Shown here: positions 2,032-32,341 of the stretch, in pieces | Layout: each line of letters opens with the position of its first letter | Position numbering within the stretch: position 1 is the stretch's first letter | The notes under the pieces: generated by a model | What the model saw: the letters and a program-made list of their open reading frames with translations, nothing else | Databases searched by the model: none | What the model was told of the DNA's origin: nothing | Translations under genes and position numbers: made by a program | Assembly: GCA_016839785.1 (NCBI GenBank) | Contig: JAEOTQ010000162.1 | Span: 1-39,650 of the forward strand | Length of the DNA stretch: 39,650 bases | From: Candidatus Hodarchaeota archaeon | GTDB taxonomy: Archaea; Asgardarchaeota; Heimdallarchaeia; Hodarchaeales; Hodarchaeaceae | Direction of reading: 5' to 3'

Positions 2032-2706
2032 TTATTCTCTCTTCACAAGATTAGAATAGTCATCATCCTCTTGTACTTCCCACTGCTCAATGCCAATCAT
2101 ATTCGATTGACAAGACACATCAATTTGTGTTAAGACGTTTAGAAAATTTGCGAGAATTCTTCCAGTAGCCCCCCAGATTATTTCTCCTTCATAATTAAAG
2201 AAAGGAACATGTATTAATTTTTCTCCTTTGTATGGTACTGCTTCTGTCCAAAATTCTTTAATATTGGAGATTTTATTTAACGCTACTTTTAGAACATATT
2301 CAATTTCATCAGAATTATGATTTGAACACTTTACATCGAAATCTTCTACAATAAAACCTACAATTGGAGTGACAACATATTGGCTTACTGTGAAAATGTC
2401 ATCCAATAATCCTAAGACATGAACGTCTTCACATCCAATTTCCTCATGAACTTCACGTAAGGCTGTATGAATTAAATCTTTATCCAAATCTTCGTCATAT
2501 CTTCCACCAGGGAAAGAAATCTCATTCTTATGATGAGTAACTTTCTCTGTTCGTCGAGTAAAGAGCAAGAACCACTCCTCAAAATTCCGAAACAGCGGAA
2601 TAAGGACAGCTGCTCTTCTATAGTCTTGAGGAAGTTTAAGAACTTTGCGAGAACTCTCTTGAAGCATTGTTTGCAATTCTTGAAGGCATTGTGGAAGTTG
2701 AGACAC
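2032..2706 (-). CDS. Nudix hydrolase, CoA pyrophosphatase subfamily
   Basis: AAVLIPL, LLFTRR..H..EISFPGG (NuCoA motif), Nudix box ALREVHEEIG, IWGATGRIL. Confidence 0.9.
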   Translation of the reverse strand: MSQLPQCLQELQTMLQESSRKVLKLPQDYRRAAVLIPLFRNFEEWFLLFTRRTEKVTHHKNEISFPGGRYDEDLDKDLIHTALREVHEEIGCEDVHVLGLLDDIFTVSQYVVTPIVGFIVEDFDVKCSNHNSDEIEYVLKVALNKISNIKEFWTEAVPYKGEKLIHVPFFNYEGEIIWGATGRILANFLNVLTQIDVSCQSNMIGIEQWEVQEDDDYSNLVKRE

Positions 2707-2939
2707 TTAGATCTCCTACTTATGAGCAAATAAGGGTTTATTTAAGACATTTTTTAGATAAATGAAATAAATGACTATATTTCATTTCTTCCCAGGGATT
2801 TTCCTTCGAAACTCCATCTGTTTAGCAATATATATAATTCAGAGAATTTTTGATTTATTCAACAAATAGCTTGTTTCCAATTTGCGAATAGTCAAAAAAT
2901 TCGCATACTGAAATCACCAGAAATTAAGGGTACTTATTC

Positions 2940-3323
2940 ATGCCTTTTATTAATGTAACATTTGCAGAAGCAAAGAATTCTTTAACAAATCGGACTCTCA
3001 TCGCTGAAATGCTAAAAGAAAAAAAAATAAATCCAAAAGAGGCTGATTTACTGGAACATATGCATTTCTATGCAAAAGATCAAGAAAAACACTCTCTAGA
3101 AAAGGTAAAAGAATTATGCAATCAATATTTTCTAAATGATCCAGAAGACGCCTATCAAAAAATTTATCGATTTGTCACAAGTGATAACAAAAGAGTTGCT
3201 TGGGTAATTTTTTCCCGAACGTTCCAACAAATTCCTTATGATGACAAAGATCCACTAGACGACTATACACCACGAGTTTCCGAAGTTTTGACAATTAAAT
3301 CAACATTCATTGCAATCAAGTGA
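2940..3323 (+). CDS. Hypothetical protein (127 aa), first gene of a putative three-gene operon
   Basis: ATG start, ordinary protein composition, 17 bp before the next gene, with a GGAG Shine-Dalgarno-like element in the gap. Confidence 0.7.
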   Translation: MPFINVTFAEAKNSLTNRTLIAEMLKEKKINPKEADLLEHMHFYAKDQEKHSLEKVKELCNQYFLNDPEDAYQKIYRFVTSDNKRVAWVIFSRTFQQIPYDDKDPLDDYTPRVSEVLTIKSTFIAIK

Positions 3324-3340
3324 GATAGGAGAATAAACCA

Positions 3341-5110
3341 ATGGCTGAAGGTAATTGTGAGCAATTGGCCACTGAAGCAGAAAAAGCTACTAGTCATTCT
3401 CTAGAGATTGCAGCTGAAATCTATGAGTCAACAGCTAAATGCTTCGATTCCAAAGGTGATAGAAGAAAAGCAGGCCAGTATCTCACAATTGCGGGTGATT
3501 TTTATTTAGAAATCAAGAAAATGGATAAGGCAGCCAGCTGTTATGGAAAAGCTATTGTCAGACATCTAATGACTGAAGATATTGAAACTGCCAAAATCCT
3601 TGTTGAAAAGGGAAAAGATTATGGTTTCACTTCCGCAACCTATCAATTCAAAATGGCACTGAATGCATTAGATCGAAAAATAACTACAGAAGAGGGAATG
3701 GAGGCGGAACTCACTCAATCTCACATCGGAGAAGATCTCCCAGATATTGTGATCTTACCTTTGGAGGAAGAGAAGGGATTAATACCGATAAACGACGAAG
3801 AATTCACAAATAATGATGATATTGATTATAATAGACAAGATTTTGTTATACCCGAATTAAAAACTGATGACCCCACTAAGATGAACTCATTCGCAGTATT
3901 AGCGGCAGTATCAAAGAGTGCAAGAAAAAAAACAGAAAGAAGAATACTTAGCGAAGCTGTAGTGAAGGATCAAAGGGGAGAAACAAAGTTTTTAGCATCG
4001 AAGTCAAGAATCACCTCAAAAAGAGCCAGTTCTGATGTTGAAGGAGTTACCGAACAAAAACACTCTGTTCCAATTTCAAAATCTGAAACTGAATTACAAG
4101 ATGATACACCCCCTCCTACTGAGCAAATACTCCTTGCAGATACTTTAGATCTCGAATATGCGGCTAAAACTGAGATTACCAATGAATACGAAGAAGATTT
4201 ACTAGATATCGAAATTGTAGATCGAATTCCATTCAGATGGGAAGTTGTAGATTTTCAGACGAATTTTGAGCTTAATGAAAGAAAAAGAACAGAAGAAGGA
4301 ACGGTATTCACCTGGAAGGCTGAAAAACTAGCTTCAGGGACGAAAGGAACAATAGAGTATGTGCTACGTAAACGAATAGAAAGATCAATCATCCTTAGAA
4401 AAGAACGGCAAGTGGTTGTTTTGAATTTATACCACTCATTGCATCAGAATTTGGAAGCTCAGCTGAACTTCGTTAATACTACAGGAGAGCAGGTACAAGA
4501 AATACTTATCGAGGACGTAATTCCTCCAGAATTGGTTGTTAATCAAGCCTTTTCACCTCAAAAAATTCGTGCTGTGAGGATACCAACTCATAATTCAACA
4601 TTATTCCGATGGATATTCAGTAATCTTCCCCCAGGGGATACTTTTTCCGTGAATTATGTCTTCAAGGAAAAACCATTGACTCGTCAATATATAACTGAGG
4701 TTGAAACTGATTCTGGGAAGTTAATATGTACAAAAATATCTCAACCCCTCGTTGATTCATTTGAATGTGAATATATTTGGATGTATACTATCGAAAATAT
4801 GTCAGCAAATGATATCACTTTGAATGATCGTATACCGTTAGATTTTAGTATATCCCTTGTTGATCCAATACATTTACGACCAACTATTCTTCGAGAAAAA
4901 TCGAATATTCTCTTATCTTGGAATTTAGAATCAGAAGAGAAGATTTTCATTGTTTTGAGAATGTCAGGAAAGGAGTCATTTACCCCACTCGCACCCACCA
5001 TTGAGATGAAGAACTGCAGAGAAATTCAGATTTTAGAAACCAGCTCTGACTCGAAAAAGGCATTACTTGATATCAGGCATCTTAAGCTTAAATTCTTGGA
5101 GATAATCTAA
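3341..5110 (+). CDS. Uncharacterised cytosolic protein: N-terminal SNAP-like TPR helices, acidic linker, three DUF11/Ig-like beta-sandwich repeats
   Basis: AAEIYESTAKCF and KAASCYGKA TPR patterns; repeat cores IEIVDRIP, ILIEDVIP and ITLNDRIP, each followed by a Trp strand (FTW/FRW/LSW); no signal peptide or TM segment. Confidence 0.65.
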   Translation: MAEGNCEQLATEAEKATSHSLEIAAEIYESTAKCFDSKGDRRKAGQYLTIAGDFYLEIKKMDKAASCYGKAIVRHLMTEDIETAKILVEKGKDYGFTSATYQFKMALNALDRKITTEEGMEAELTQSHIGEDLPDIVILPLEEEKGLIPINDEEFTNNDDIDYNRQDFVIPELKTDDPTKMNSFAVLAAVSKSARKKTERRILSEAVVKDQRGETKFLASKSRITSKRASSDVEGVTEQKHSVPISKSETELQDDTPPPTEQILLADTLDLEYAAKTEITNEYEEDLLDIEIVDRIPFRWEVVDFQTNFELNERKRTEEGTVFTWKAEKLASGTKGTIEYVLRKRIERSIILRKERQVVVLNLYHSLHQNLEAQLNFVNTTGEQVQEILIEDVIPPELVVNQAFSPQKIRAVRIPTHNSTLFRWIFSNLPPGDTFSVNYVFKEKPLTRQYITEVETDSGKLICTKISQPLVDSFECEYIWMYTIENMSANDITLNDRIPLDFSISLVDPIHLRPTILREKSNILLSWNLESEEKIFIVLRMSGKESFTPLAPTIEMKNCREIQILETSSDSKKALLDIRHLKLKFLEII

Positions 5111-7048
5111 TTGTCAGAAACTTTACCTCATTTTAATATGCACCAGTTTAACCATGTAGTGCTAGCGGTTCTATGGGACGATATCTCGGGCCCTTCAATT
5201 ATATCCCTTTATCCTTTGGCCTTTGATGACCCTGAATCAATCGCGTTACAGATATATCTAGCTTCAGTAACGGTTTTCGGTCAACATGGACAATCTCAAA
5301 GGACAGAGTTTAGTGTCCCCTTGTTAAGCTTGGGAAAAAATATCCTTGCCCGTGTAGCATTTGATGCATGGTTTGATCCATCAATTCGTGGAGAAGAACG
5401 TCCATTTTTTTTAGCTATTATTGCAAAACATGATAGCGTAAATTTATTGAATACACATCTCGACACTCACATTTTTACATACTTAGATATGCTAAAGGAA
5501 GAGAAAGACAAATTTAATGCAAGATTGGTGTGGGAAAAGATCACAGATTCAATAAGTGATTCTCCAATAGAAAAAGTCCATTTTGATCCAGCTAGTATAG
5601 ATTCCGAATACGCTATCCCACGTGCCTTGAAAGATTTACAAACGGCACATGAAGCATGGGATAAACTCAAAGATCGTAATCAACTCTGGACAGCCATGAA
5701 AGTGGCAAATCGGTTGGAAAAAATTGATGATAATGCTGCTGGTGAAGCATTTCTTTTATCTGGAAACATTTTCCAAGCCACCAATAACTTTCAGGATGCA
5801 CAAAATGCTTTTAAACAGGCTACTGACGCTTTTTCTCGAGCTCATGAGTTTCAGAAATCAGGCCAAGCTTTTTGTCTAGCAGGAAAAATGGCCTATCAAT
5901 TGGGGAATAATGATAAGGCAATTGAATTATTTCAAAGTGGAGCTGTCTGGATAAAAGACTTAAACTCACAAGCCTCACTACAATACGATATGGCATTAGT
6001 TTATCAAGATCTTGATCGGTTTGAAGATGCGAATGGATGTTTTGAGAAATCTGTGAAGTTGATTGAAGAAATTGATTATAATATTGCTGCAAAATATACA
6101 TCTACATATGCAAGTAAATTAATGCTTCAAGCAGAGAAGGAAAAATTAGAAAATCCAACGTATTCTCTTGGTTTGACACGGAAGTCCGCAGAGCAACGGA
6201 TTAGAGCTGCTGATTTCCTAAAGAGAAATGATGATGGACTTGAGGAAGCTGCCACGTCTTTAATGCTAGCTGCTAAAATCTTCTTTTCTTTAGAAAATGA
6301 ATTGAAAGGGATAAATCTTGTAAAACAGGCTTCTTTGCAATTTAAGCAGGTAGATAATTTTCAGTCAGCTCTTAAAACTTTATACGATGGTGCTCAAACG
6401 GTAAAAGATGTTGAATCGAAATTATCACTTTTTAATCATGCTCTTTCTCTCATTCCAGAGGAAACTCATGATAATCAAATTAAAAGATTATTAGGACTGA
6501 TATCTTATGAGATTGGAAGAATTGAAATAGATAGGGATCAGCATTTAGTATCAAATAATTATCTCTCTCGTTCTAAGAATTTCCTTACTACTGCTAAAGC
6601 TCCTACTGTTGAACTAATTCCCGTGTTGATACTCTTTGCAAGCAATTCATTTAATATCGAAAACTTCGAGGATGCTGCTAGTAATTTTTATGCAGCCTAT
6701 GAGCTTTTATCAGATATGGAAGAGACAGAATCAATATTAAATCAAAAAAGTCGATCCTTAACAAACGCGTTAATTAGTTGGAGACGAAGCAGTACTATAT
6801 ATCACAATGCAGGATTAGTCTCGTTATTAAACCAAAAGGAGAGAGAGTCTGTTGAATATTTCACTCGTTCAGCCGCATTATTGATTGAATGGGTAGAAAA
6901 TAATGCGATAGACTCTCAGGATGAAATTCAAAAGGTACTACGAGATCGTGTAAGTAGATTACAGGTAAAAAATGACTTATTCTTGTTAGCTGAGTCGAAA
7001 TATAAAATTGAGGGAATTATTTCAGATCTAAATTCATTAATTATTTAA
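5111..7048 (+). CDS. Longin/uDENN-like N-terminal domain fused to an extended TPR (alpha-SNAP-like) solenoid
   Basis: N-terminal VVLAVLWDDISGPSIISLYP resembles the hydrophobic-FD-x3-GP-x5-YP start of longin/uDENN domains; ~480 aa of TPR-type repeats (AQNAFKQATDAF, ANGCFEKSV, AASNFYAAY); TTG start abuts the previous stop, alternative ATG at 5138. Confidence 0.6.
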   Translation: MSETLPHFNMHQFNHVVLAVLWDDISGPSIISLYPLAFDDPESIALQIYLASVTVFGQHGQSQRTEFSVPLLSLGKNILARVAFDAWFDPSIRGEERPFFLAIIAKHDSVNLLNTHLDTHIFTYLDMLKEEKDKFNARLVWEKITDSISDSPIEKVHFDPASIDSEYAIPRALKDLQTAHEAWDKLKDRNQLWTAMKVANRLEKIDDNAAGEAFLLSGNIFQATNNFQDAQNAFKQATDAFSRAHEFQKSGQAFCLAGKMAYQLGNNDKAIELFQSGAVWIKDLNSQASLQYDMALVYQDLDRFEDANGCFEKSVKLIEEIDYNIAAKYTSTYASKLMLQAEKEKLENPTYSLGLTRKSAEQRIRAADFLKRNDDGLEEAATSLMLAAKIFFSLENELKGINLVKQASLQFKQVDNFQSALKTLYDGAQTVKDVESKLSLFNHALSLIPEETHDNQIKRLLGLISYEIGRIEIDRDQHLVSNNYLSRSKNFLTTAKAPTVELIPVLILFASNSFNIENFEDAASNFYAAYELLSDMEETESILNQKSRSLTNALISWRRSSTIYHNAGLVSLLNQKERESVEYFTRSAALLIEWVENNAIDSQDEIQKVLRDRVSRLQVKNDLFLLAESKYKIEGIISDLNSLII

Positions 7049-7085
7049 TAAAGACCTAAGGTCTGATAAAAAATTTGTTTCCCGA

Positions 7086-9311
7086 TTAGTCCATAAATTT
7101 TAACCGTATTTGTTCAACTAATTTTTCTCGTTTCATAATTAACCTTGATTTCTTGAGCTCTAATCGCTTAACAATCTCCTCATGCTTTAGATCTGATACT
7201 TCGTCATTGAGAAATTTCTGGTCAGCTTTTTCCAATGAATCCTCAATTTGAGCGATATCACCATTAAGAGTTAAAAGTTCAGGATGATTAGTTGGAAAAC
7301 CCTCCTCATCATAGTGGTATTCTATTGATTGATCTTCTTGTTTTTCAGCTTTTTCTTGCTTAGCTTGTGACGTAATATTGATTGTTTTAGTGAAAACTTT
7401 AGGCCCAATTACTTTCTGAGATGGAGAGGATTTTTTCTCTTCCTTTTTGCTTTTACGTTTTGTATGCACATCCTGATCACTTAGATACTCAGAATCACCA
7501 ATTAAGAAGCCTTCTTGTTTTCCCTCAGAGTTTGTTAGGAGCAAATTTGGTAACTCACCTGAGAAAAGGGATTCGACTTGGTCAGTGAATAAACGATCAA
7601 ATTTCTCTTGGGCCATCGTAATTTCTTTACGTGCTTCATCAAGATCAATTTTTTCCCCTTCTTGTATACGCATACCGAAGATTTTAACGATTTCTCCTGC
7701 AGGCGTTTCTAATACTGACACAAATGGTGTTTGCACAAACGAATAGTCTGGAGTTTCTAGAACAGTAACTAATCCACCTAGAATTTTAACATATTCTCCA
7801 ACACCTTTTATTTCCACAACTTGAACTACTCCTCCAAGAATTTGAACCAGGTTTATTCCAAACTTCTCGAAAACGAATATTCCCGGTAATCGAACCAAAG
7901 TATAGTCTTTTGTTTCTGTAATTGTATATTTTGATGGAGCAGTATCAAAAACAGAGGAAAAAATTCCTTGTGGTCCTTTCCAATTCTTTAACTGAGATAT
8001 AGCCTGCTTGACATTGTCGAATAATTCAGTTGTGGAATCAAGTCCCGCAGAAATCAGCTCGTTTTCAGTTAGTTCACTTATTTTCTTGGGTTCTAGTTGA
8101 AGTTTGAGTTCATCCCATTCTTCTGGGGGAACCCAAATTGTTGTGGTACCCTCTACATCTTTTGTAGAAACCTCTTGATCTTCTGTCTTTGTAGACAACT
8201 CTGATTTTCCCATTAAAACCAGTGTCGTTCCTTTGTCAGTAACGGTAGGTACTGCAATAGAACCCTTTTTTGCTGAGATAGAAGTCTTTCCCTTGCTTAT
8301 GATTTTCAAATCATCTGTAGGAATGGTAAAAACCTGTGCTGGTTTTTCAAATGAAGTTTCTTGTATTGTACTGGCAAATTCATTAATTCTACTACCTACT
8401 TGACTATTAGGATCAACAATTTTTCCTGTAAGTGAATTAAGCATTGAGTTAAATCCATTAGTTCTTTTTCTTTGGGGTGTTAGTAAGAGCAATACCCCAA
8501 TTATTAGCAGAAAGAATGCTACGTATTGAATAACCTCTTTTCTATTAACTATCCAACCTAACAATAAAAATGCTAATAATATGAATGCTGATGACAAAAA
8601 TCCATCACGTACTCTTTCTACTCTATTTTTCAAGGCAAAATTTTGACGAAGAAGAGTATTTATTGAAACACTTTGCCTTGGAGCGTTACCAGGTAGAATA
8701 ATCCCCAGAACATTGAAAACGAGAGATCCAAGGAGCAATACTTCTAATTCAAATTCAAAGGATTCAGGGATTAGAAGGATTGAAAATCCAGTTAAAACAA
8801 AAATTACGATTGTTGCGATCCAAAAACCACGAAACACTTCCCCAACATAGTAAAAATAGCCAAAATGCATGGATTTTAAATTGAACCTGTTCCAAATAAT
8901 CGCTAGTGGTGTGAGAAGACAGGCCGTCAATGATTCAAATTCTGAATAAGACAAATTTGGAAAATTAACATCCCAAAGTTCGAAGGAGATGGACGCAGAT
9001 GAGAAAATATTGATGAGGATAAATCCGAAAAGAATTTTCACCGCCCTATTAAGAGGAGAAGGAATCTCTCTCTCATCGCCTGAAAAGAACTTTGAAAAGG
9101 GGATTACTAAAAAAAGCAGAAGAATGATACCAAATAAGGTTGCTCGTATGGCTGAATCACCAGTGAATGTTACAGCAATTATACACCAGAAAATAAGAGC
9201 AAGAGTAAAAATATAATCAAGGGGAGTCTTTGGTCGAAGAAATTCTTCTGTTTGATCAAGCGCAAAACTCTCTAAAGAGCCATACTTCTGTATTTTTTGA
9301 ATATTTTCCAT
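7086..9311 (-). CDS. Uncharacterised polytopic membrane protein (~8 TM) with a large C-terminal soluble region
   Basis: About eight hydrophobic segments in the first ~280 aa, then a soluble region with beta-hairpin repeats, a Lys-rich linker and a terminal helical hairpin/coiled coil. Confidence 0.75.
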   Translation of the reverse strand: MENIQKIQKYGSLESFALDQTEEFLRPKTPLDYIFTLALIFWCIIAVTFTGDSAIRATLFGIILLLFLVIPFSKFFSGDEREIPSPLNRAVKILFGFILINIFSSASISFELWDVNFPNLSYSEFESLTACLLTPLAIIWNRFNLKSMHFGYFYYVGEVFRGFWIATIVIFVLTGFSILLIPESFEFELEVLLLGSLVFNVLGIILPGNAPRQSVSINTLLRQNFALKNRVERVRDGFLSSAFILLAFLLLGWIVNRKEVIQYVAFFLLIIGVLLLLTPQRKRTNGFNSMLNSLTGKIVDPNSQVGSRINEFASTIQETSFEKPAQVFTIPTDDLKIISKGKTSISAKKGSIAVPTVTDKGTTLVLMGKSELSTKTEDQEVSTKDVEGTTTIWVPPEEWDELKLQLEPKKISELTENELISAGLDSTTELFDNVKQAISQLKNWKGPQGIFSSVFDTAPSKYTITETKDYTLVRLPGIFVFEKFGINLVQILGGVVQVVEIKGVGEYVKILGGLVTVLETPDYSFVQTPFVSVLETPAGEIVKIFGMRIQEGEKIDLDEARKEITMAQEKFDRLFTDQVESLFSGELPNLLLTNSEGKQEGFLIGDSEYLSDQDVHTKRKSKKEEKKSSPSQKVIGPKVFTKTINITSQAKQEKAEKQEDQSIEYHYDEEGFPTNHPELLTLNGDIAQIEDSLEKADQKFLNDEVSDLKHEEIVKRLELKKSRLIMKREKLVEQIRLKFMD

Positions 9312-9581: not shown

Positions 9582-12500
9582 TCATTCTGTCAGTGTTGGA
9601 TCGTGACAATAAACACAACCTTCCTCATTAAATTCTGTTAAAGTAATGAACGCTCCACACTTGCTACATACGATTTCTTCATCAGAAGTTGACTCTTCCT
9701 GTGTAATTGATGTTTCTTCTTCACCTTTTTCACCGTTAGTATATAAATCCGTTTTTTCCAATTCATCAATCTCATCAGGTGATACTAAAGATGATTTCTG
9801 ATCACGAGAGGTTGTTTCTACAGATTTAGGGATAATAGATTCGATCTCATTCCTCGATATTTGCGGAGATACGCTTTTCATTGATGAGGGCTTTACAGAC
9901 GATGACGATCTTTTGCCACCTTTTTTCCTACGTCGTTTTGGTTGAGATTTCGTTGTTTGTGGAAAATTAAAAATTGTGTCAAGAGATTGTGTCCTTGGTT
10001 TCCCTCTTTTCTTTTGAGTTTTCTTTAAATTTACGTTTGTTGATAATTTCACAAGTCTAAGGGGTGGTGTTTCTTCTTCTGGTTCGGAAGGTATAATTAT
10101 TGCTGTATTAACGTCTTCAGATTCCTGTTCAAGTATTTTCTCTTTTTCTGCATTCTCTATTTCTTCGATGTCAAGAATAATTTGTGTATCTGATTTTACC
10201 TCTTGAGTTTTCATTGGATATTGAATCATTCTATCAAAAATTCTCCCAGGATCATAAATATCTTTTAAATACTGCTTGGTGTCAATTAATTGCTTTATAT
10301 CTGAAATTGAGGTGATCTCATTTAGCATAAAACTTAACGTACATATCCCATGCTTTATAAAAACAGATTTAACTTTTTCAAAATCGAAATCAAACACTTG
10401 AGCAGGGATAACATGATTTCCCTTGATGTTCACCATTTGAATACGAATCCCTGGATCAATAGAATATCCAAGGTCCTTCAAGATGTATGCTGCTGTAACT
10501 TGAGGTAATTTTGACTTATAATCCTTTAGATCCTTATTAATAGCCTTGGGTTTGACAAAGTATGAGGGATCTAGGTTTCCCTCCAGCACTTCATTTCTTA
10601 TCCTATCTGAGGCTTTAAACGCGTTTTGATATATTTGTCCTAATGAAATCGGATTTGCGGGATCGTACTGTTCTAAATATGCTTTTATAATTTCTTCTTG
10701 AAAGTGTTTTTGTAGTTTTGAAAAATCTGCTCTTTTTGATTCCAACCCTGTTATTTCTTCTTCCTCCCATTTGTTATCCTGTCCTAGATGATTATAAACA
10801 ATATATTTCTTTTTGCCCATGACAAATTGAAAATCATAGGGACCATCTTGTTCGAATTGAATTAGGCTTTTACTAGTCCTCTTTATCGTCACTCCGTCAT
10901 TTAACTGGTAATTGTCATTTTTGAATCCAGCAGTTATAACTTTTTCATTTAAAATTTTATCAATAAGACTAACGCGAAACTCAAGCTTTTCATCTAATTC
11001 TGCAGGATTACTTAATGTCACGGGAAAATCAAGGGGAAATTGCTTTGGAACCCATAACCATACTCCGTCGGTATTGTGACATATGATTCCTCCATTCGCA
11101 GATACAAAATTATTATTTTCATCCACGGTCAGGTCATATACATACTCTGAAGTCTTTTCGACCTCTTCTAAGCTTTTTTTCTGAATATTAATTGTATCAT
11201 TTAATTCCCTATGAGGATAATGTAATCCACTACCCACTCTCCAATTCTCATAGTTCATGAAGTTAATTACATAACATGGATTTCCAGAGGTTGCTGAGAC
11301 GGTCTCTTGAATACTGACCGTGGATCCCAATTGTTTTCCAAGTACGTAGAGATCATCTCGTAATCCACTACTTGATGTATAGAAGGCCTTTCGTTTTCCT
11401 TGAATCGATCCATCTCCGGCAAAATATCCTCTTAAAAACGCATCCTTTATTTCTGTATTTGCAGATAGGATTAATTTTGGGATTCTTTTATTAAAGGCAG
11501 TATGACCACAACCAAGGGTCTCGAAAAGATGATAGAAGAAAATATTATCCATAGCTAGCCTAAATGTTTGGGATCTGGAATCTGAGAGAGCTGGTGTAAC
11601 TTTATATGTTGTATGTAAGTGTTTAGCGACTTCTACTATGAGTTCTTCAATTCTTTTCAGATTAATCTTATTCTTTTGAGAAATCCCAACGCTTGCTATA
11701 CCATTGTAGATCCCTGAACTCCCTTCTGCAACAAACCATCCACATAATTCTGCTATCTTCCCATCTAATTTTATAATTGGTGAATACTTGTACCCCTTCC
11801 TACTACCTACCAATGTTCCAGGTTCTATTTTGCCATTAAATCGTTTTAAGGAAATTTCGTAATAGTTTCTTCTCTTATTTTTGTCTTTCTTGTCGTATCT
11901 TAAGCTAGACTGTCGTCCTCCCCATTTTTTCTCTCCTCCAACAGGAACGTAAACGAATAACTCCAAACTTTCTGGGCTACATGATGTGAAATCAACATAG
12001 AGTCCTGATTTCTGAATATTGGGAATGGTTCCAATATGAGCTATGAATTCGTCATTCAATTTATTTACTATTAAAGGTTCAATACGCTCCTCAATTTGGT
12101 GGAATATACTATGAGAATCCGTAGTCTTGACAGAACCAAACGGAGTGGTAATTTTGAATATATTTCTGTTTGTTTTCTGCCTAACACATCGTAATACAGT
12201 CTTCCATTCAACAACTCCGTATTCTGATACAGATAATGCTTTCCAACCACTTGGTACGGAAACGTATTCTACTCCTCGAGATTGAACTTGAACCCCTGAC
12301 TCTGAGATCGACAGACAATAATCTGTAAATTCTCCTATTGAATCAATTTTGATGAAACCATCTGGATCTTTGAGAACAAGACGTTCAGCATAATCCAAAC
12401 TATCTAATTCAGTAACCATTCCAATATTTTCCAATTGATTTGCGGCCCAATATATCAAATCCGCAGATAATTTTGTAGTAATACCTGCACACGGTGTACT

Positions 12501-15341
12501 AGCATTTCTCACTCCTCCCCGCATACCCAATAAACCGTAAATACTATTGAGGGGAACTTTCATTCCCAGTTGCGTACTATCATGAAATTTCTGTTGTCGA
12601 AGCGTGGTTGGTGGAACTGACTGATTTGTTAAGTTTTTTTGCTTGATAACTTGTTTTAATCTCTGGGCTTCGAATTTATGTCTAACTCTAGTATTGAAGA
12701 ATTCATCCATAATACGAGCTACGAAATTGAAAGCTTTTTGACACACTCGTGATTGAACAGAAATGAGAACTGATATTTTTTTTGTCCGAACATCGATACT
12801 TAGGTAAGTATTCTTTGGAAGCTGAAACGATTTTGGTTGATCTTCAAAGATATCAAAGTGATTTCTGTCTAAATGAGTTCCTAGCTGAGTAGCTTCCACT
12901 GTTTGTTCTAACCACTTCTCTATCCTATTATAAGGGTCAACAGAAGTGAAATTCTTTCCTAAATATGATTTACTCAAAGGAATCTTTGTGAATCCTGACC
13001 GTTTTTTCAAGATGTGTGCTTCAGTCTGTGAACCATTGTATGAGAAGATCTCTTGAATTCGTCCTGTAGTCGCTTCTTCAGGTTCATACTCTTTACAAGT
13101 AGACTCATTCTGAGTAGTACATATTGAAGGATCACATTTTGATGAACTTTTCACTTTGTGTTTACATGGTCTACGAGCAGTAAGTTTGATTACCCAATCT
13201 CCTTCAAAGAAGCAGCTTCCATCTTTTTCTTTATAGTTACACTTTTGACATTTGGTTAGTGGTACAATACCCGAAGGTTGTAGTTTATATTGGCGAATTT
13301 GTGATGGATACATAGATGTAACATCTACATGGACACCCCTCATCTGTACGGGTCCTGATGTATCTAATAGCTCGTCTATCTGCTTTACAATCTCCTCTAC
13401 AACTTGTTCCACTCCCTCAACTTGAATATCAGAAAGGTCCTCAAGGATTTCGCGTAAAATTGAATTTTTCTCCTCATAAAGACTAGTTGGCACCCCATTT
13501 TGTTGTAAAGCCGAGGAAAAATTCTTATGTAGCTGTTCGAGGTCATCTGTAAAGGAAATCGGTAAATCACCAAATTTTGCTAAAATTTTTCTATCAAATT
13601 GGTTTTTCATTTCCCTTTTGGCTATACCTTCACTATTTTTTGTGATAATTTGCTGTATAAGCGCTTTAATCTCAGTAAGAGCTTTTTTATTAGGTTTGAA
13701 GTCTGTGAAGATATCACTTCGAAAGATTCCTGATCGCCTCGCTTCAACTAATCCTCCAGTATAGGCAAAGGAGTCTATCCTTATATTTGGAGAAAAAGAT
13801 TCAATGTGTTTTTGCTCAATTCTTCGTTTACCAATAATGTTATAATGATGGCCTTCTGCATCAATTAGTAAATCATCTAAAGAACCAGCCCGACGAGTTA
13901 AAATTTCGGAAGATGGAACAGGAAACATCTGTCCTAAAGAAATAAAGAAATCTAACACAATTTCTTTAACATAACGATAAGTAATATATCCATCACATGC
14001 AGCATAACCAACAGCATCGACAGGACTTTCCTCGATTGCAAAAAGTGCTTCTCGTCCAATAGGTATTATCTTAAGCTTCTTTTCAACACTTGGCTTCAGT
14101 CCTAAATCCTTTTTGGGTAAGTAACTATACTTTTCATTAAACAAATAAGCATCAAGATGAATTATACCTGCACCCGATACAGAATCAATGCTTGCGGGAG
14201 AATAATTTTCTCTGAGATCAATATTCCCTTGATTCTGCCCATCAGGCCTTCGTTTATATTTAATACGAAAACCTGTTCTTCTTTCAAGTGAGATATTATA
14301 CAGTAAAGAGCGAACTGCTAAAAATGGGATGTCAAACCGATCTCCAAAGAAATCCGCAAACACATCAGGTTGATATTCTTCTATTATCTCATAAAACCGA
14401 TGCAGAAGTTGTTGTTCATTTTTATAAATTTGTACATTGACTGGAACTCGTTCAATAAGTACTGATTGAGGAAAAAAAGTATCTTTCTTACACCAATCAA
14501 CCCAGGGCTTTGAATGGTCCTTATCTTTCTGTTTCAATACAATATCAATGCCTGAGACATCTTTCGTGTCCACTACATCATCATTGATTATCAAATGATT
14601 TACATTTCCAGTGAATAAAGAAATCATTGAAATTGCATCACGATTGGGATTTGGTTCACGTGTTAAATCAAAGACAGTTTCAATATCATAAGCAAGAATC
14701 TGAAGTTCTGGTGGTGCTTTATTGTGTAAAATATCAAGTTTGTGAATTTCTCCTCCTCTAATATCGGCTTGATACCAAGATCCAACCCTAATATTATGGT
14801 CAATAGCTACACGATGGTTATAGAGGACATCCGCTTCTCGCCATTCAATTACTCCTTTAATTTGTTCACATTGAGATCTTATGCTCGGAACAGACCTTGG
14901 ATGATCCACAGTAACTTTGAGGAAATCCTTGGTTATTAGAAAAGTAAGATCAGCAGCATCATGACATATCTCCTTTGAAACCATGATAACTTTTTTCTCT
15001 CCAAGTTCCTGAATCTGAGCAATTATTCGATTTATTTGATTGCTTGTAAGTTCAGATCTTATTAATAGATAAAAGTATGGAGCATGTCGTAAAAAAGCAC
15101 TTCGCTTATTATGGCCCTCATCAAGAAAGTATACCTGAACACCGTTTATAGTTCTTGTATTACCACCTGATTGATAATCATCCTCAGAATCAAACGAGGG
15201 TTCAAAAGTTTCATCTTTTTTACTCTTGGCTTCGTAATCCAAAATAAAGATAGGCTGATCTACCTGCTGATTATACCGATAGGGGGGAAACCATGAGCGA
15301 TAACCATGATTAGCGCCGCGATTTCGACCTGAACTTGCCAT
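9582..15341 (-). CDS. polB: Family B DNA polymerase, eukaryotic Pol epsilon-like, intein-containing precursor (1919 aa; 1476 aa spliced)
   Basis: Exo motifs LAYDIET, FFGDRFDIPF and YAACD; epsilon-type YTGGLVEARRSGIFRSD; motif A HVDVTSMYP..LQP; motif B QLGMKVPLNSIYG; motif C ELD|TDGVW; KKKY and GLESKR. Confidence 0.93.
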   Translation of the reverse strand: MASSGRNRGANHGYRSWFPPYRYNQQVDQPIFILDYEAKSKKDETFEPSFDSEDDYQSGGNTRTINGVQVYFLDEGHNKRSAFLRHAPYFYLLIRSELTSNQINRIIAQIQELGEKKVIMVSKEICHDAADLTFLITKDFLKVTVDHPRSVPSIRSQCEQIKGVIEWREADVLYNHRVAIDHNIRVGSWYQADIRGGEIHKLDILHNKAPPELQILAYDIETVFDLTREPNPNRDAISMISLFTGNVNHLIINDDVVDTKDVSGIDIVLKQKDKDHSKPWVDWCKKDTFFPQSVLIERVPVNVQIYKNEQQLLHRFYEIIEEYQPDVFADFFGDRFDIPFLAVRSLLYNISLERRTGFRIKYKRRPDGQNQGNIDLRENYSPASIDSVSGAGIIHLDAYLFNEKYSYLPKKDLGLKPSVEKKLKIIPIGREALFAIEESPVDAVGYAACDGYITYRYVKEIVLDFFISLGQMFPVPSSEILTRRAGSLDDLLIDAEGHHYNIIGKRRIEQKHIESFSPNIRIDSFAYTGGLVEARRSGIFRSDIFTDFKPNKKALTEIKALIQQIITKNSEGIAKREMKNQFDRKILAKFGDLPISFTDDLEQLHKNFSSALQQNGVPTSLYEEKNSILREILEDLSDIQVEGVEQVVEEIVKQIDELLDTSGPVQMRGVHVDVTSMYPSQIRQYKLQPSGIVPLTKCQKCNYKEKDGSCFFEGDWVIKLTARRPCKHKVKSSSKCDPSICTTQNESTCKEYEPEEATTGRIQEIFSYNGSQTEAHILKKRSGFTKIPLSKSYLGKNFTSVDPYNRIEKWLEQTVEATQLGTHLDRNHFDIFEDQPKSFQLPKNTYLSIDVRTKKISVLISVQSRVCQKAFNFVARIMDEFFNTRVRHKFEAQRLKQVIKQKNLTNQSVPPTTLRQQKFHDSTQLGMKVPLNSIYGLLGMRGGVRNASTPCAGITTKLSADLIYWAANQLENIGMVTELDSLDYAERLVLKDPDGFIKIDSIGEFTDYCLSISESGVQVQSRGVEYVSVPSGWKALSVSEYGVVEWKTVLRCVRQKTNRNIFKITTPFGSVKTTDSHSIFHQIEERIEPLIVNKLNDEFIAHIGTIPNIQKSGLYVDFTSCSPESLELFVYVPVGGEKKWGGRQSSLRYDKKDKNKRRNYYEISLKRFNGKIEPGTLVGSRKGYKYSPIIKLDGKIAELCGWFVAEGSSGIYNGIASVGISQKNKINLKRIEELIVEVAKHLHTTYKVTPALSDSRSQTFRLAMDNIFFYHLFETLGCGHTAFNKRIPKLILSANTEIKDAFLRGYFAGDGSIQGKRKAFYTSSSGLRDDLYVLGKQLGSTVSIQETVSATSGNPCYVINFMNYENWRVGSGLHYPHRELNDTINIQKKSLEEVEKTSEYVYDLTVDENNNFVSANGGIICHNTDGVWLWVPKQFPLDFPVTLSNPAELDEKLEFRVSLIDKILNEKVITAGFKNDNYQLNDGVTIKRTSKSLIQFEQDGPYDFQFVMGKKKYIVYNHLGQDNKWEEEEITGLESKRADFSKLQKHFQEEIIKAYLEQYDPANPISLGQIYQNAFKASDRIRNEVLEGNLDPSYFVKPKAINKDLKDYKSKLPQVTAAYILKDLGYSIDPGIRIQMVNIKGNHVIPAQVFDFDFEKVKSVFIKHGICTLSFMLNEITSISDIKQLIDTKQYLKDIYDPGRIFDRMIQYPMKTQEVKSDTQIILDIEEIENAEKEKILEQESEDVNTAIIIPSEPEEETPPLRLVKLSTNVNLKKTQKKRGKPRTQSLDTIFNFPQTTKSQPKRRRKKGGKRSSSSVKPSSMKSVSPQISRNEIESIIPKSVETTSRDQKSSLVSPDEIDELEKTDLYTNGEKGEEETSITQEESTSDEEIVCSKCGAFITLTEFNEEGCVYCHDPTLTE
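11073..12401 (-). mobile_element. Intein (443 aa, residues 981-1423) with LAGLIDADG homing endonuclease, inserted in polymerase motif C
   Basis: Starts with Ser (SLDYAERLV), block B TTDSH, endonuclease motifs LCGWFVAEG and FLRGYFAGDG, block F VYDLTV, ends CHN with +1 Thr; excision restores ELDTDGVW. Confidence 0.96.
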
Positions 15342-16584: not shown

Positions 16585-19176
16585 TTGTCTTTTCAGTTGA
16601 ATCAAAATCATCTCACTAATAAGACATCAGATCTGGCTTTAATCCGACTAAAACCATTGATTCAAGAGATTCTACAGCTCAATCATAAAAATTCCAATCC
16701 AGAAACTTCAGATAATAGATTTGAAGAAATTATCATTTTTCATTTTGTCACTCTGATGTTTATTGGGATAGAAAATATTAATGAGCTCCTTAAATTAGAA
16801 TTAAAAGATTGGAACGAAGTATTTTCTTATTTTAGTGATCCTTGTGAAGTCGTCCTTCAATTAACAAAATTTCTATCGCTTTTAAATCAATCTGATCAGG
16901 TTTACGGTTATTATTCTGAAAATCGAGATTTCTTGCAAGAAAATTTAAGGAAAGTGGATTGGGGAACACATGCGGAAATGGTTTGTAGGGATATTGTTTT
17001 CAAGAAAAATCATAGAAGTCAATGTGAGGGAAATTCAACCAATATAAATTTCGATTTTTTAGATAAAATTGCTTATTTATTGATAGAGATAAGAAATAAA
17101 TCAAAAAAACACTCTGGAATTATATATACTCCGTATTATATTGCTGAGCAAATCACTGAGAAAATTATCATTCAGTGGTATAAAAAAACCATACATACTA
17201 ACCTCAAAACGAGACCAAATCAAAAACCTGTCCTTCTTGATCCTACTGTCGGTACAGGTATTTTTTTAATTGCTGCAGGAAACGCCTTATTGAACAATTT
17301 TAAAAAAGAAGCTCAAATCTCTTCAGATCTTTCTCTTAGAAAGGAGATTATAGAACATTATCTTTACGGTTTTGATAATGATCCGATTGGAATTCTAATT
17401 ACCAAGATCAAACTAAATTTGTGGATATTAGATGACTTAATTTCAAGTACCGAGTCAGATGTGGGTCTATCAGACAATATCTATCAGAGAGATTCTCTAT
17501 TCGAATATTCTTCTATGCCGTCACATATGGAATCGATCTCCAAACTCGAACAAGATTCTTGGAATGATAAATATTCTGTTTCTAGTGAAAAAAAATTTGT
17601 TTATAAAATTCCTTCGAAGTCTTCCTTCCATAAAAGAATAACAGATATTAATAAACTTAACAAAATGGTTTCTGAATTAGAAGATTCATATTATTTCATA
17701 ATAGAGGGAAGAAAGCGAGAGTGGAACGAATTTAAAGCCTTTTTGAACAATGAAACTAGAAAAAAAGTATATTTTTCGGTCTCTGATTACTATAATCCGA
17801 CAAACGATTCTTTTCTTGTCAGTTCGTGTGAATTACATCAAAATATGGGCGATAATCTTTCACTATGGAATTTTCATGAATCTTATCACAGAAGTGAACC
17901 TGGTCTTCCCCAAAAATTCGATATAATCGTTGGAAATCCCCCTTATATAGCGTTAACAGATTTAGCAATGATTACACGCCTTAAGATTAGACAAGAATTT
18001 CCAGAAATCTATAATGGGAATAGTGATGTGTCATATTTCTTTACGAAAAAAATGATTCAAAATTTAAACCCTAATGGGATTCTAGGGTTCCTTCTACCAA
18101 AATCTTTACTGTCCAGTGTCCATGCAATGAGTATTAGAGAATTCATTACAAAAAATTCCACTTTTCTTGAACTTCACGATTTTAATGGGATTCAATTATT
18201 TCCTCAAATTAATATCAAAACATGTTTCTTACTACTAAAAAAACAAATTAACAGTCAAAACAAAGAATTTTATGCATATAATTACTTTACAACAAAGATT
18301 GAGGATATTGAAGTTATAAGAATTTCTCAAACGCGGCTAAAATCGAATAAATGGACTCTATTATCGAGTTTACAACTTAAAATTATAGAAAAATTGATCA
18401 AGATATCGAACTTCAGGTTGAAAGATATTTCGTCAATTAGTAAAGGTATTGAAACAGGGTGTGACAAGATTTTCGCTCCCAAGATTCCTTACTTCTTTTC
18501 TAAGCAATTAAATTTGAATTCCTATAATTATAAACCATGGCTAAAAGGGAAGGAGATAAAGCCATTTTTTATAAGTCGTGAGGGTAGAGAGGTCTTATAT
18601 GCTCCAAAATCTCGACAGAAACAGATTAGAAAATCAAAAAAAGCTTACCAATTTTTGAAGGATAACCAAAATGAACTTTTAAACAGGAGTAGAGTGACTA
18701 AGTATTACTTATGGAGAGAGGGAGATGAACGTTACACTATGAATTGGCAAAATAGCAAGATTGTCACCCCCTATAAAGCAAAGAAGAATACTTTTGCTAT
18801 TGATAATCAAGGTTGTCTATCTTCCAAGGATGTTGTTTGGATCATTCCTAATAAAGAATTTCAGGATGATGATTATCTACAGGTTCTTGTAGCTTTATTG
18901 AATTCAAAAACACTCACATTCTACGCTCGATGTATGTTCAAAGACTTGGGAAATATGTTTGATTATTACCCCCTTCAAATTGATAGCTTTCCTCTCGTAA
19001 TGCCTATTCGGAATTCTCGAGAGTTCATCGACATTCTTAATCTAGTAAGACGATTCCGATACGAAAAAAGAAGTAAAAGAGAGAACTTGTTGCAAGATAT
19101 AGATAAAATGGTATATCAGTTGTACAATTTAACAAAAGAGCAGATCTTGGAAGTTGAGTCATTCACAAGTCGATAA
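16585..19176 (+). CDS. Gamma-class amino (probably N6-adenine) DNA methyltransferase with TaqI-like C-terminal target-recognition domain
   Basis: Motif X GIIYTP, motif I LLDPTVGTGIFL, LYGFDND, motif IV IVGNPPY, GILGFLLP; TRD motifs KGIETG and ALLNSK; TTG start after GGAG. Confidence 0.9.
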   Translation: MSFQLNQNHLTNKTSDLALIRLKPLIQEILQLNHKNSNPETSDNRFEEIIIFHFVTLMFIGIENINELLKLELKDWNEVFSYFSDPCEVVLQLTKFLSLLNQSDQVYGYYSENRDFLQENLRKVDWGTHAEMVCRDIVFKKNHRSQCEGNSTNINFDFLDKIAYLLIEIRNKSKKHSGIIYTPYYIAEQITEKIIIQWYKKTIHTNLKTRPNQKPVLLDPTVGTGIFLIAAGNALLNNFKKEAQISSDLSLRKEIIEHYLYGFDNDPIGILITKIKLNLWILDDLISSTESDVGLSDNIYQRDSLFEYSSMPSHMESISKLEQDSWNDKYSVSSEKKFVYKIPSKSSFHKRITDINKLNKMVSELEDSYYFIIEGRKREWNEFKAFLNNETRKKVYFSVSDYYNPTNDSFLVSSCELHQNMGDNLSLWNFHESYHRSEPGLPQKFDIIVGNPPYIALTDLAMITRLKIRQEFPEIYNGNSDVSYFFTKKMIQNLNPNGILGFLLPKSLLSSVHAMSIREFITKNSTFLELHDFNGIQLFPQINIKTCFLLLKKQINSQNKEFYAYNYFTTKIEDIEVIRISQTRLKSNKWTLLSSLQLKIIEKLIKISNFRLKDISSISKGIETGCDKIFAPKIPYFFSKQLNLNSYNYKPWLKGKEIKPFFISREGREVLYAPKSRQKQIRKSKKAYQFLKDNQNELLNRSRVTKYYLWREGDERYTMNWQNSKIVTPYKAKKNTFAIDNQGCLSSKDVVWIIPNKEFQDDDYLQVLVALLNSKTLTFYARCMFKDLGNMFDYYPLQIDSFPLVMPIRNSREFIDILNLVRRFRYEKRSKRENLLQDIDKMVYQLYNLTKEQILEVESFTSR

Positions 19177-30444: not shown

Positions 30445-31068
30445 GTGACCGTTTTAAAAATCGTATTAATTGGAGATGGAGGCGTAGGAAAAACAGCTAT
30501 TCGAGAGCGGTACCTAGGTAAAGGTTTTAAATCACAATACCTCCTCACAATCGGTGCAGATTTCGCTATGAGGGACGATATGATTGATGGCGCTGGTATC
30601 CGTTATCAAATTTGGGATTTAGCAGGACAACAACGATTTGATGCGGTTAGAGAGGTTTACTATAAAGGATGTGTCGGTGCACTCCTAGTCTATGATGTAA
30701 CTCGTCCTGATTCATATTTCAACACACCTAAGTGGATTAACGAGCTCTGGGCGAACAACGGGAGAGGTCGTGTTCCTATAGTTGTGGTTGCAAACAAAAT
30801 CGACATGAGAGAGTTATCTGATGACACAGTTTCACCAGAACAGGGTCGTGTGTTTACAAATCGTCTATCAAATCTCACAAAAGCCGAAGGGTTCGAATGC
30901 CACTATATAGAGACCTCAGCAAAATCAGGTGTCAATATTCAGAACGCATTTGGCCTTCTTGGTACGAATGTCATGAGATTTGTAGAAAATCAACGAAAAA
31001 CTAGCCGAATAACAAGCCGTCTAAAATCCACACCCCAAAGAACAGCTCCAGAACAGAGACAAGTTTGA
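30445..31068 (+). CDS. Rab-like small GTPase
   Basis: G1 GDGGVGKT, G2 TIGADF, G3 IWDLAGQQRF, YYKG, LVYDVT, G4 NKID, G5 ETSAK. Confidence 0.95.
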   Translation: MTVLKIVLIGDGGVGKTAIRERYLGKGFKSQYLLTIGADFAMRDDMIDGAGIRYQIWDLAGQQRFDAVREVYYKGCVGALLVYDVTRPDSYFNTPKWINELWANNGRGRVPIVVVANKIDMRELSDDTVSPEQGRVFTNRLSNLTKAEGFECHYIETSAKSGVNIQNAFGLLGTNVMRFVENQRKTSRITSRLKSTPQRTAPEQRQV

Positions 31069-31915: not shown

Positions 31916-32341
31916 ATGAGTCTACGAGAACTACTTGATAATTTCGCTGTAGGGTTTTCTGTTGCAGGTATATTTATCCAAACACCTCAGGAGCTCTTCC
32001 CCGTGGTTCAAAAAAATCCTAATTTTTATCTGGCGATTAAACGAATTCCAATCCTTGAGGAAGGATTCTTGGAGATTAATATTGGTAGCGAAAAGTTTGG
32101 ACTCCTTGTAAATATATTGAATGAGCAATTGAAACTATTAATAGTATCAAATTTGAAAAATATCAATGAAATCCAAGCCCATTGGAAACGATTTGGTCCT
32201 GTCATTCGTGAGAAAGTCCAAATTGACGATTTTATTATGCAAGAAAGCATTGAAACACGATTATTTAATCGTCTGGAAGATATTCGAATATCGTTTAAAT
32301 ATGCGTTAATTGATTTTAAGGAGAAGACTAAAGTTGGCTGA
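31916..32341 (+). CDS. Hypothetical protein, possibly roadblock/MglB-like
   Basis: Apparent order alpha-beta-beta-alpha-beta-beta-beta-alpha (LRELLDNF, AGIFIQT, FLEINIG, FGLLVNI, LKLLIVS, INEIQAHW); fold call tentative; GTG 31907 is an alternative start. Confidence 0.5.
   Translation: MSLRELLDNFAVGFSVAGIFIQTPQELFPVVQKNPNFYLAIKRIPILEEGFLEINIGSEKFGLLVNILNEQLKLLIVSNLKNINEIQAHWKRFGPVIREKVQIDDFIMQESIETRLFNRLEDIRISFKYALIDFKEKTKVG

Follow-up and report, generated by a model that had tools for sequence, protein, structure and literature searches.

A longin-TPR protein and its operon as a candidate small-GTPase regulator in Hodarchaeales archaea

What is encoded by three tightly packed genes of an Asgard archaeon that combine a longin domain, tetratricopeptide repeats (TPR) and beta-sandwiches: part of a trafficking apparatus, or a regulator of small GTPases? 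The genes, here called g1, g2 and g3, lie on contig JAEOTQ010000162.1 of a Candidatus Hodarchaeota archaeon (GenBank assembly GCA_016839785.1), within a 39,650-nucleotide stretch that was analyzed as a whole (the window). An earlier note on this DNA had described three co-oriented genes with gaps of 17 and 0 bp, and the open reading frames (ORFs) were found exactly so. On the plus strand, g1 (2940-3323, ATG start) encodes a very conserved small protein of 127 residues with no family assigned, g2 (3341-5110, ATG start) a 589-residue protein with a TPR head, a linker and beta-sandwich repeats, and g3 (5111-7048, TTG start) a 645-residue longin-TPR protein; the domain calls of the earlier note hold up. 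An alternative ATG at 5138 would give a g3 protein of 636 residues, the form used by some database entries. The g1-g2 gap is 17 nt, and the g2-g3 gap is 0 nt with the TTG start or 27 nt with the ATG start. We take all three to be real genes because each has 66 to 75 homologues at E <= 1e-3 (g1 72, g2 66, g3 75). The named sources of these homologues are all Asgard metagenome-assembled genomes, labeled Hodarchaeales/Hodarchaeota, Heimdallarchaeota, 'Promethearchaeota' and, twice, 'Thorarchaeota'. With a probability of about 0.5, we read the operon as encoding a cytosolic small-GTPase regulator that is specific to Hodarchaeales and would most likely act on a member of the Arf family; its active subunit would be g3, with a longin of the GTPase-activating protein (GAP) type.

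The AlphaFold2 (AF2) model of g3, built from a 44-sequence alignment, had a predicted local distance difference test (pLDDT) score of 85.9 and a predicted TM-score of 0.78. In this model residues 15-148 run beta-beta-alpha-beta-beta-beta-alpha-alpha (strands 15-23, 27-34, 65-70, 78-88 and 96-106; helices 41-51, 107-134 and 137-148; pLDDT mostly 73-91), which is the longin order as passages of PMC10933270 and general knowledge together give it. The strand and helix order and the profile evidence described below agree on the longin that had been proposed at the head of g3, which we place at residues 10-150 (5138..5560, plus strand). The remainder of the protein, residues 169-645 (5615..7045, plus strand), is a TPR solenoid of about 14 helical hairpins in the AF2 model, where a DENN domain or an NPRL2 C-terminal domain would follow in the eukaryotic proteins. 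Pfam sees only the repeats of g3, as TPR_2, TPR_12 and SNAP; the SNAP match covers two short segments and scores 28.3 bits against a cut-off of 25. The best Foldseek matches are generic TPR proteins (TSK, OGT, LGN/Pins), none of them SNAP. Whole-model fold searches of both g3 and g2 with Foldseek and VIA-align were likewise dominated by TPR matches. A group of ~680-residue proteins (P0280, P0293, P0310, P0322, P0332, P0334, P0337 and P0340; alignment A6) also joins an N-terminal longin with a GP motif to TPR repeats, and has in addition a conserved C-terminal domain of about 130 residues.

What kind of longin this is was approached with profiles of the domain: A3, a narrow profile of the g3 N-terminal domain, and A5, made from 30 sequences that comprise stand-alone members and g3. 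Among 1.84 billion proteins, A3 found 268 cluster representatives at E <= 1e-3. When A5 was run against 177,635 PDB sequences, human C9orf72 was the sole match below E 0.001 (6lt0_C, E 2.3e-4), with profile positions 17-152 of 160 aligned to residues 27-162; the narrow A3 found nothing in the PDB below E 0.85. A broader hidden Markov model (HMM), made from 141 representative domains and A3, matched a 441-residue ORF of the same genome (C230:1195-2517) with E 3.2e-9, and this ORF passes the Pfam Folliculin model (27.9-29.1 bits against a cut-off of 23.3). In the ESM Atlas, g3 residues 10-150 lay beside small Asgard proteins in a cluster with 19% NPR2 members (score 0.92), and a eukaryotic C9orf72-like/NPR2 cluster scored 0.75, which serves as a lead only. 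The Folliculin match of the 441-residue protein (plus strand; the same as L031) falls in its N-terminal longin, and a 347-residue GTPase-like ORF (6778-7818) shares contig C230 with it. This protein may be the 'FLCN-like' Heimdallarchaeial protein that is mentioned in the passages of Liu et al. (10.1101/2020.10.19.343400) used here.

The domain family also shares short motifs. A W22-D23-x3-G27-P28 motif (5174..5194, plus strand) lies in the turn between beta1 and beta2 of g3 with the same spacing as W33-D34 and G38-P39 of C9orf72, and the A5 alignment set the W-D-x3-G-P of the family onto the WD..GP of C9orf72. Its residues are well kept among the 141 family representatives (W22 in 139, D23 in 123, G27 in 139, P28 in 127). 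In the loop between beta4 and beta5, R93 (5387..5389, plus strand) is followed by G94; R93 is kept in 131 and G94 in 110 of the 141, and R93 is invariant within the g3 family. In the A5 alignment the R-G of the family fell onto an N-G of C9orf72, the subunit without an arginine finger. We regard R93 as a candidate arginine finger, a putative counterpart of SMCR8 R147, FLCN R164 and NPRL2 R78.

These residues are the ones by which GAP longins have been told from other longins. In the parts of PMC12290439 that we drew on, a GP motif beside an arginine finger marks the GAP longins FLCN, NPRL2, SMCR8 and C9orf72 (the C9orf72 residues being W33-D34 and G38-P39), is not found in adaptins, TRAPP subunits or DENND proteins, and recurs together with the arginine finger in Heimdallarchaeial 'FLCN/SMCR8-type' longins. 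The portions of PMC8213707 at hand describe how the two longins of C9orf72-SMCR8 cup ARF1 with SMCR8 Arg147 directed at the nucleotide, and report that C9orf72 W33G/D34K nearly abolishes ARF1 GAP activity. Several lines point to membership of the g3 longin in the folliculin/SMCR8/C9orf72/NPRL2 GAP class, as judged from profiles and motifs, and we consider it not to be of the adaptor, TRAPP or DENND kind because the WD...GP motif and the conserved arginine are present.

A connection of this longin type to small GTPases was seen in its domain company. Eighty relatives, chosen to span lengths from the 150 listed of the 268 matches, were scanned with Pfam; the scan passed over most proteins of ~290-300 residues, and receiver fusions are therefore under-counted. 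Among these 80 relatives, 18 join the longin to an Arf or Ras GTPase domain, 14 to TPR repeats and 10 to a receiver domain (with Arf present as well in two of the 10), and it occurs with PAS and histidine-kinase domains in many of the scanned proteins. Fusions of longins to GTPases and to two-component domains have already been described in the sections of PMC10933270 and of Liu et al. consulted here. Within this genome, the g3 longin has its closest paralog in a receiver (REC) + longin protein of 298-304 residues (C8:39005-39916, minus strand; L002:1405-2301), which lies beside a PAS-rich ORF and about 4 kb from two GTPase-like ORFs (C8:34218-35120 and C8:35160-35906).

Gene linkage points in the same direction as the fusions. 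In G069, a genome of the sister Hodarchaeales family (f2), contig C83 carries on one strand a gene for a 227-residue Arf-family protein (PF00025, E 3.2e-44), followed immediately by g1 and the start of g2; the remaining part of g2 and g3 are on contig C585. The best match of this Arf in the present genome is C43:6982-7572 (54.5% identity over 167 residues; next best 39%). In the present organism the substrate would most likely be an Arf-family GTPase from another place in the genome. The regulator part of the 'GTPase-regulating complex' that the earlier note had suggested is thereby supported by the longin class, the motifs, the GTPase fusions and the Arf gene of G069. In the other f2 genome, G070, genes for an Rce1-like protease and a CN hydrolase are found upstream of g1, and further scans of genomes and metagenomes yielded almost only loci of the type found in family f1, to which the present genome belongs, and no additional context from the sister family.

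Small GTPases also occur in the window itself, where a plus-strand cluster comprises three Ras-family genes (30445-31068, 33728-34252 and 34277-34831) and a gene for a 415-residue apolipoprotein-like helical protein (32310-33557). These three GTPases were considered as partners of the operon and set aside: their distance from it exceeds 23 kb, and with only 25-30% identity to the Arf of the G069 operon they are not its orthologues.

The distribution of the three genes was followed across 83 Heimdallarchaeia genomes, in which f1 (a single GTDB genus) and f2 are two Hodarchaeales families and G000 is the present genome. We found g1 in 23 of the 83: G000, 20 of the 21 other f1 genomes and both f2 genomes, with none among the 59 elsewhere. 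Full-length g3 has the same distribution (20/21 f1 plus G000, 2/2 f2), and g2 in its TPR-bearing form is likewise limited to these genomes. The f1 genome G059 (74% complete) has only receiver-type g3 paralogs, and outside the order two matches to g3 covered only the TPR part. The genes proved co-conserved, as a synteny check suggested by the earlier note had asked, within f1 and f2 only.

Wherever all three genes were on one contig they were adjacent and co-oriented (16/16 genomes), and the arrangement in another five, interrupted by contig breaks, fits adjacency too. At the level of ORFs, all three genes were present in 8 of 11 loci, the other three being cut by locus ends; all eight longer loci held the genes in order, as did the four metagenome loci with enough flank. 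The g1-g2 gap is 5-17 nt in 12 of 12 loci and the g2-g3 gap at most 36 nt in 8 of 12. We believe the larger g2-g3 gaps probably reflect rough start-codon calls, plus a split g3 in L073. In the metagenome loci L072 and L073, g3 is split into two overlapping ORFs by a frameshift or an assembly error, and in G060:C23 g2 and g3 lie in one open frame of 1277 residues broken by a single TAG.

Adjacency inside the f1 genus is by itself weak evidence, because the whole block around the genes is syntenic there: the 741-residue gene downstream was found in 8 of 8 f1 loci, and the NUDIX and HMG-CoA reductase genes and the DNA polymerase gene (PolB) in 7 of 8 each. Stronger arguments than f1 adjacency come from the phyletic pattern that the three genes have in common, and from f2, which keeps the g1-g2 and g2-g3 pairs amid different flanks. 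In the window, the upstream neighbor of g1 is the NUDIX gene (2032-2706, minus strand), which is divergent, and the downstream neighbor of g3 is the 741-residue ORF (7086-9311, minus strand), which is convergent; g1-g2-g3 therefore stand alone as a unit. The 741-residue protein matches no Pfam family, its f1 orthologues are 40-82% identical, and its gene could be functionally linked to the operon or merely syntenic with it.

The boundaries of the unit were read from the sequence and from expression data. The AT-rich intergenic region upstream of g1 (2707..2939, plus strand), with a TATA-like run near 2826-2840, is likely the promoter region. A scan for sigma-70 promoters gave 12 sites against 15.6 expected and is uninformative for an archaeon. 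Where g3 and the 741-residue gene converge, their stop codons are 37 nt apart (7049..7085), and this spacer contains a short palindrome flanked by A/T runs, which may be a bidirectional terminator; a terminator scan, also uninformative for an archaeon (1 terminator-like site against 2.5 expected), did not list it. A sediment metatranscriptome run contained short near-identical contigs at 2883-3067, 4716-4968, 4984-5134, 6296-6485 and 6683-6915, which map to parts of g1 and of g3, to the 3' end of g2 and to the junction of g2 with g3, with DNA carry-over possible. The first of them begins 57 nt before the ATG of g1, a weak hint to the promoter, and the junction contig enters g3 by only 24 nt, below the 31-nt bridging rule. 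The gene products had been described as lacking membrane segments and signal peptides, and a crude Kyte-Doolittle scan agrees with this in finding no transmembrane-like segment (maximum 19-residue means 0.44 for g1, 0.80 for g2 and 1.53 for g3) and polar N-termini.

The second protein of the operon is a composite. In the AF2 model of g2 (pLDDT 65), residues 6-120 form six helices, residues 120-200 and 228-270 are disordered, and strands occur solely between 272 and 572, a region with a pLDDT of about 57-90. The linker, at about residues 120-270, is acidic (21% D+E). The best structural matches of residues 3-120 are the first ~135 residues of Sec17 (Z 14.0, root-mean-square deviation 3.0, 112 residues aligned) and gamma-SNAP (Z 13.7), at 17-21% identity. 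The SNAP likeness is modest because unrelated TPR proteins score 13.5, the Z obtained with a Rap TPR protein; such values are common among helical repeats. For the claim that two of the proteins carry SNAP-like TPR helices, g3 offers its Pfam match, and g2 this modest structural likeness and a SNAP score of 16.4 bits, below the cut-off of 25.

Three cysteines of the g2 head, C6, C34 and C67 (3356-3358, 3440-3442 and 3539-3541), are invariant in 41 of 41 aligned homologues, and H19 is nearly so; the cysteines might bind a metal or work as a redox switch.

Residues 268-576 of g2 (4142..5068, plus strand) form the beta-sandwich region, the sole part in common with ~520-residue proteins of other Heimdallarchaeia families. 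Outside f1 and f2, 47 of the 59 genomes match only g2 residues ~213-581 (HMM positions 250-579). Comparison of the internal repeats with hhalign gave probabilities of 92% for repeats 1 and 2, 46% for 1 and 3 and 0.3% for 2 and 3. Of the three immunoglobulin-like domains proposed earlier, the predicted strands over 272-572 and the relation between repeats 1 and 2 are compatible with the claim, and repeat 3 is weakly tied to repeat 1 and not at all to repeat 2. Pfam DUF11 was matched by two of eight scanned g2-like homologues (L017:5257-6927, 30.1 bits against a cut-off of 24.6, and L020, 18.3 bits) and by no part of g2 itself.

The ~520-residue g2-like genes have neighbors of their own. In eight f4 and two f6 loci (the L015-L030 set) they are preceded by a co-directional gene for a helical protein of ~200 residues, which weakly matches the TPR head of g2 (E 0.002-0.03, the set searched being very small). 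The g2 gene may have arisen by fusion of two older neighbors. HMM searches for g1 and g3 beside the g2-like genes of other families found neither, apart from one TPR-only match beside the gene in L015. In L030 (f3) the order is a bPH-domain protein, the g2-like protein and a 646-residue TPR protein without the longin motif.

The smallest protein, g1, has a mean column identity of 69% over 37 sequences. It matched no Pfam family at cut-off and no PDB sequence below E 0.02, has no paralog in the genome, and has no profile similarity to the longin (hhalign 0.2%), g2 or g3. Its association with the other two was probed by complex prediction, with full-length g3 and g2 residues 1-225 as the assembly, g1 as the scored partner and three controls. 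The median interface score (ipSAE) was 0.35 (runs 0.35, 0.00 and 0.36) and the best control 0.00; the score of g1 fell to 0.00 once g3 was swapped for an unrelated protein. The partner had a pLDDT of 52 or more, and contact agreement between the runs was at least 0%. Of 157 solved complexes 116 pass the mark, as do 2 of the 215 mismatched pairs; scores of 0.60 or under were seen for only 18 of the 157 and for both of the mismatches that passed. The multimer check that had been proposed for the operon is thus passed weakly (0.35 against 0.00), and the prediction raises the odds that g1 binds g3 only slightly. The idea of a heteromeric complex draws weak support from the tight conserved operon, the shared phyletic pattern and this weak prediction.

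How might such an operon act? The longin class to which g3 is assigned forms the catalytic 'bowl' of the eukaryotic GAP complexes FLCN-FNIP, GATOR1 (NPRL2-NPRL3) and C9orf72-SMCR8. The g3 longin would dimerize, probably with itself because the operon is without a second longin, and the dimer would cup a GTP-bound GTPase. R93 would then enter the nucleotide pocket as an arginine finger, aided by the WD and GP residues, and the TPR solenoid of g3 together with g2 and g1 would serve as scaffold, targeting or regulatory subunits. What the analysis shows directly is the homology, the motifs, the domain fusions and the gene linkage, from which GAP activity, substrate, dimerization and complex are inferred. 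A bolder version of this reading, which we hold to be speculative and rather unlikely, sees in g3 a surviving single-chain precursor of the longin GAP heterodimers of eukaryotes, in which one homodimerizing longin unites the substrate-holding WD of C9orf72, the GP motif and the arginine finger of SMCR8/FLCN; it would be the native GAP of a Hodarchaeales Arf-family GTPase, with g1 and g2 as lineage-specific targeting subunits on the TPR solenoid.

A number of observations weigh against a GAP operon. The whole-model fold search of g3 returned only TPR proteins and no longin match, and g3 by itself matches none of the Pfam models for longins, Folliculin or NPR2 (residues 1-170 gave 0 families at E <= 5); Pfam NPR2 finds nothing across the genome. 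The tie to eukaryotic GAP longins consists of one profile match (E 2.3e-4) and a transitive step through the 441-residue paralog, and R93 is a putative equivalent of the known fingers. The operon has no DENN domain, and profile comparison showed a second longin in neither g1 nor g2 (hhalign 0.2%). The receiver, PAS and histidine-kinase fusions allow a signaling role without GAP activity. No GTPase gene lies in or beside the operon here, in the f1 loci examined or in G070; the neighboring Arf was seen in one genome only, the f1 and metagenome loci examined being without it. In f1 the block from HMG-CoA reductase through NUDIX, g1-g2-g3 and the 741-residue gene to PolB is wholly syntenic, in G070 g3 is on another contig away from g1-g2, and the complex prediction is a weak pass with one of three runs at zero.

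Other explanations of the locus were weighed as well. The g3 longin might bind a GTPase without any GAP chemistry, as an effector, a guanine nucleotide exchange factor (GEF) or a sensor of nucleotide state, while the TPR, g2 and g1 recruit others. Longin/roadblock dimers are mainly GEFs and occasionally GAPs, according to the passages of PMC10933270 used here, and the GTPase fusions are compatible with binding as well as with catalysis. We nevertheless find such a platform unlikely: the WD, GP and RG residues are kept across the 141 representatives, and they are reported, in the parts of PMC12290439 cited above, to be specific to GAP longins and absent from GEF and coat longins. Another view is that the longin is an output module of signaling or sensing unrelated to small GTPases, working in the manner of the receiver-fused paralogs of two-component systems, the operon then being a Hodarchaeales-specific signaling scaffold. 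It finds support in the receiver fusions, in which the longin follows the receiver, in the PAS and histidine-kinase company, in the REC + longin protein as closest paralog, and in the two-component fusions of NPRL2-like longins reported in the passages of Liu et al. Arf domains, however, are found also in two of the ten receiver fusions and in most of the PAS/kinase fusions; two-component inputs and GTPase control therefore appear combined rather than alternative, and an Arf gene heads the operon in G069. We judge a role apart from GTPases to be improbable.

Nearly the same improbability attaches to the proposal that g1, g2 and g3 are co-transcribed neighbors without a common complex, the functions of g1 and g2 then being unrelated. 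Whole-block synteny would keep the f1 neighborhood together regardless of function, g3 is apart from g1-g2 in G070, relatives of the g2 beta-region occur without g1 or g3 in the 47 of 59 other genomes, and the complex prediction is weak. Against this stand the common presence and absence of the three genes across the 83 genomes, the constancy of the short g1-g2 gaps in all 12 loci, the persistence of gene pairs in f2 despite different flanks, and the loss of the g1 score upon replacement of g3. Much less probable still, in our estimate, is the trafficking complex of the earlier note, a proto-coat, adaptor, TRAPP-like or DENN-GEF assembly. A longin, an alpha-solenoid and a beta-sandwich 'appendage' do resemble the building blocks of adaptors and coats, and the N-terminus of g2 resembles that of SNAP/Sec17. 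The longin, however, appears to be of the GAP class rather than of the adaptin, TRAPP or DENND class; in the whole-model Foldseek search the AP-4 mu4 C-terminal domain ranked 17th (probability 0.23) and TRAPPII 38th (0.15), with TM at most 0.18; and the Pfam and hydropathy scans found no membrane-binding element or DENN domain. With no link to membranes, coats or trafficking seen, that reading is not supported, and the operon is better described as a candidate GTPase regulator than as a demonstrated vesicle coat or adaptor.

Comparison with known systems locates what is new in the candidate GTPase-regulator operon. The nearest are the Asgard 'FLCN/SMCR8-type' (GP-motif) or 'NPRL2-like' longins, which in the passages of PMC12290439 and 10.1101/2020.10.19.343400 used here are of the same class and fold, with the GP motif before beta2 and a conserved arginine, and which likewise occur in Heimdallarchaeia fused to two-component domains or GTPases, as do the relatives of g3. 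The g3 domain differs in heading a 645-residue protein with about 14 TPR hairpins, in an operon with g1 and g2. The C9orf72-SMCR8-WDR41 Arf GAP complex (6lt0, 7mge; described in the consulted parts of PMC8213707) is the only PDB family matched by the g3 domain profile; C9orf72 has the WD-x3-GP spacing of g3, and a link to Arf is indicated for g3 as well. In eukaryotes two longin-DENN proteins form a heterodimer, joined by a beta-propeller, with WD on C9orf72 and the arginine finger on SMCR8. A single chain of g3 combines WD, GP and the candidate arginine, with a TPR solenoid, no DENN, and g1 and g2 as candidate partners. The Rag GAPs Folliculin-FNIP and GATOR1 (NPRL2-NPRL3) belong to the same longin superfamily and are linked to g3 through the Folliculin-positive 441-residue paralog; g3, in contrast, is below the Pfam Folliculin and NPR2 thresholds, has no DENN or NPRL2 C-terminal domain, and has no linked Rag-type GTPase. 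Alpha/gamma-SNAP (Sec17) is the best alignment of g2 residues 3-120, and g3 passes Pfam SNAP, but g2 holds only about three hairpins (~120 residues) of the ~290-residue SNAP fold, and a tie to NSF or SNAREs was not seen, no search having been aimed at one.

The literature searched held no description of a longin-TPR fusion or of the g1-g2-g3 operon, and the term 'TPR' occurs 0 times in PMC12290439 and PMC10933270; the sequence list in Data S1 of PMC12290439 may include g3 orthologues, and Liu et al. may touch on the subject in Figure 5c or in their supplements. As far as these searches reach, the label 'undescribed' given to the locus stands for the longin-TPR fusion and the three-gene operon and not for the longin class, which is already published together with its GTPase and two-component fusions.

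Elsewhere in the window, a minus-strand gene (9582-15341) encodes a family-B DNA polymerase of 1919 residues with an intein that carries a LAGLIDADG homing-endonuclease domain (Pfam DNA_pol_B_exo1, Intein_splicing, LAGLIDADG_3 and DNA_pol_B). The PolB orthologues in related genomes differ in ORF length, and their intein content may differ. Two large restriction-modification genes of the Eco57I/N6_Mtase type (type IIG-like) lie tail to tail at 16585-19176 (plus strand) and 19190-21700 (minus strand).

Asgard archaea have many Arf-, Rag- and Rab-like GTPases, and we know of no native GAP or GEF that has been demonstrated for any of them. Genes for GTPases and their regulators are rarely in operons according to the consulted parts of PMC10933270, which makes the pairs hard to predict. 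The locus offers a defined set with which to begin: a GAP-type longin with the candidate catalytic residues W22, D23, G27, P28 and R93, the candidate partners g1 and g2, and a candidate substrate by way of the G069 Arf and its counterpart C43:6982-7572. If the reading of g3 as a GAP is true, the longin-GAP mechanism, which in eukaryotes is linked to lysosomes and nutrients, would predate eukaryogenesis, and the operon would show the GAP-longin role in another architecture, with a TPR solenoid in place of DENN.

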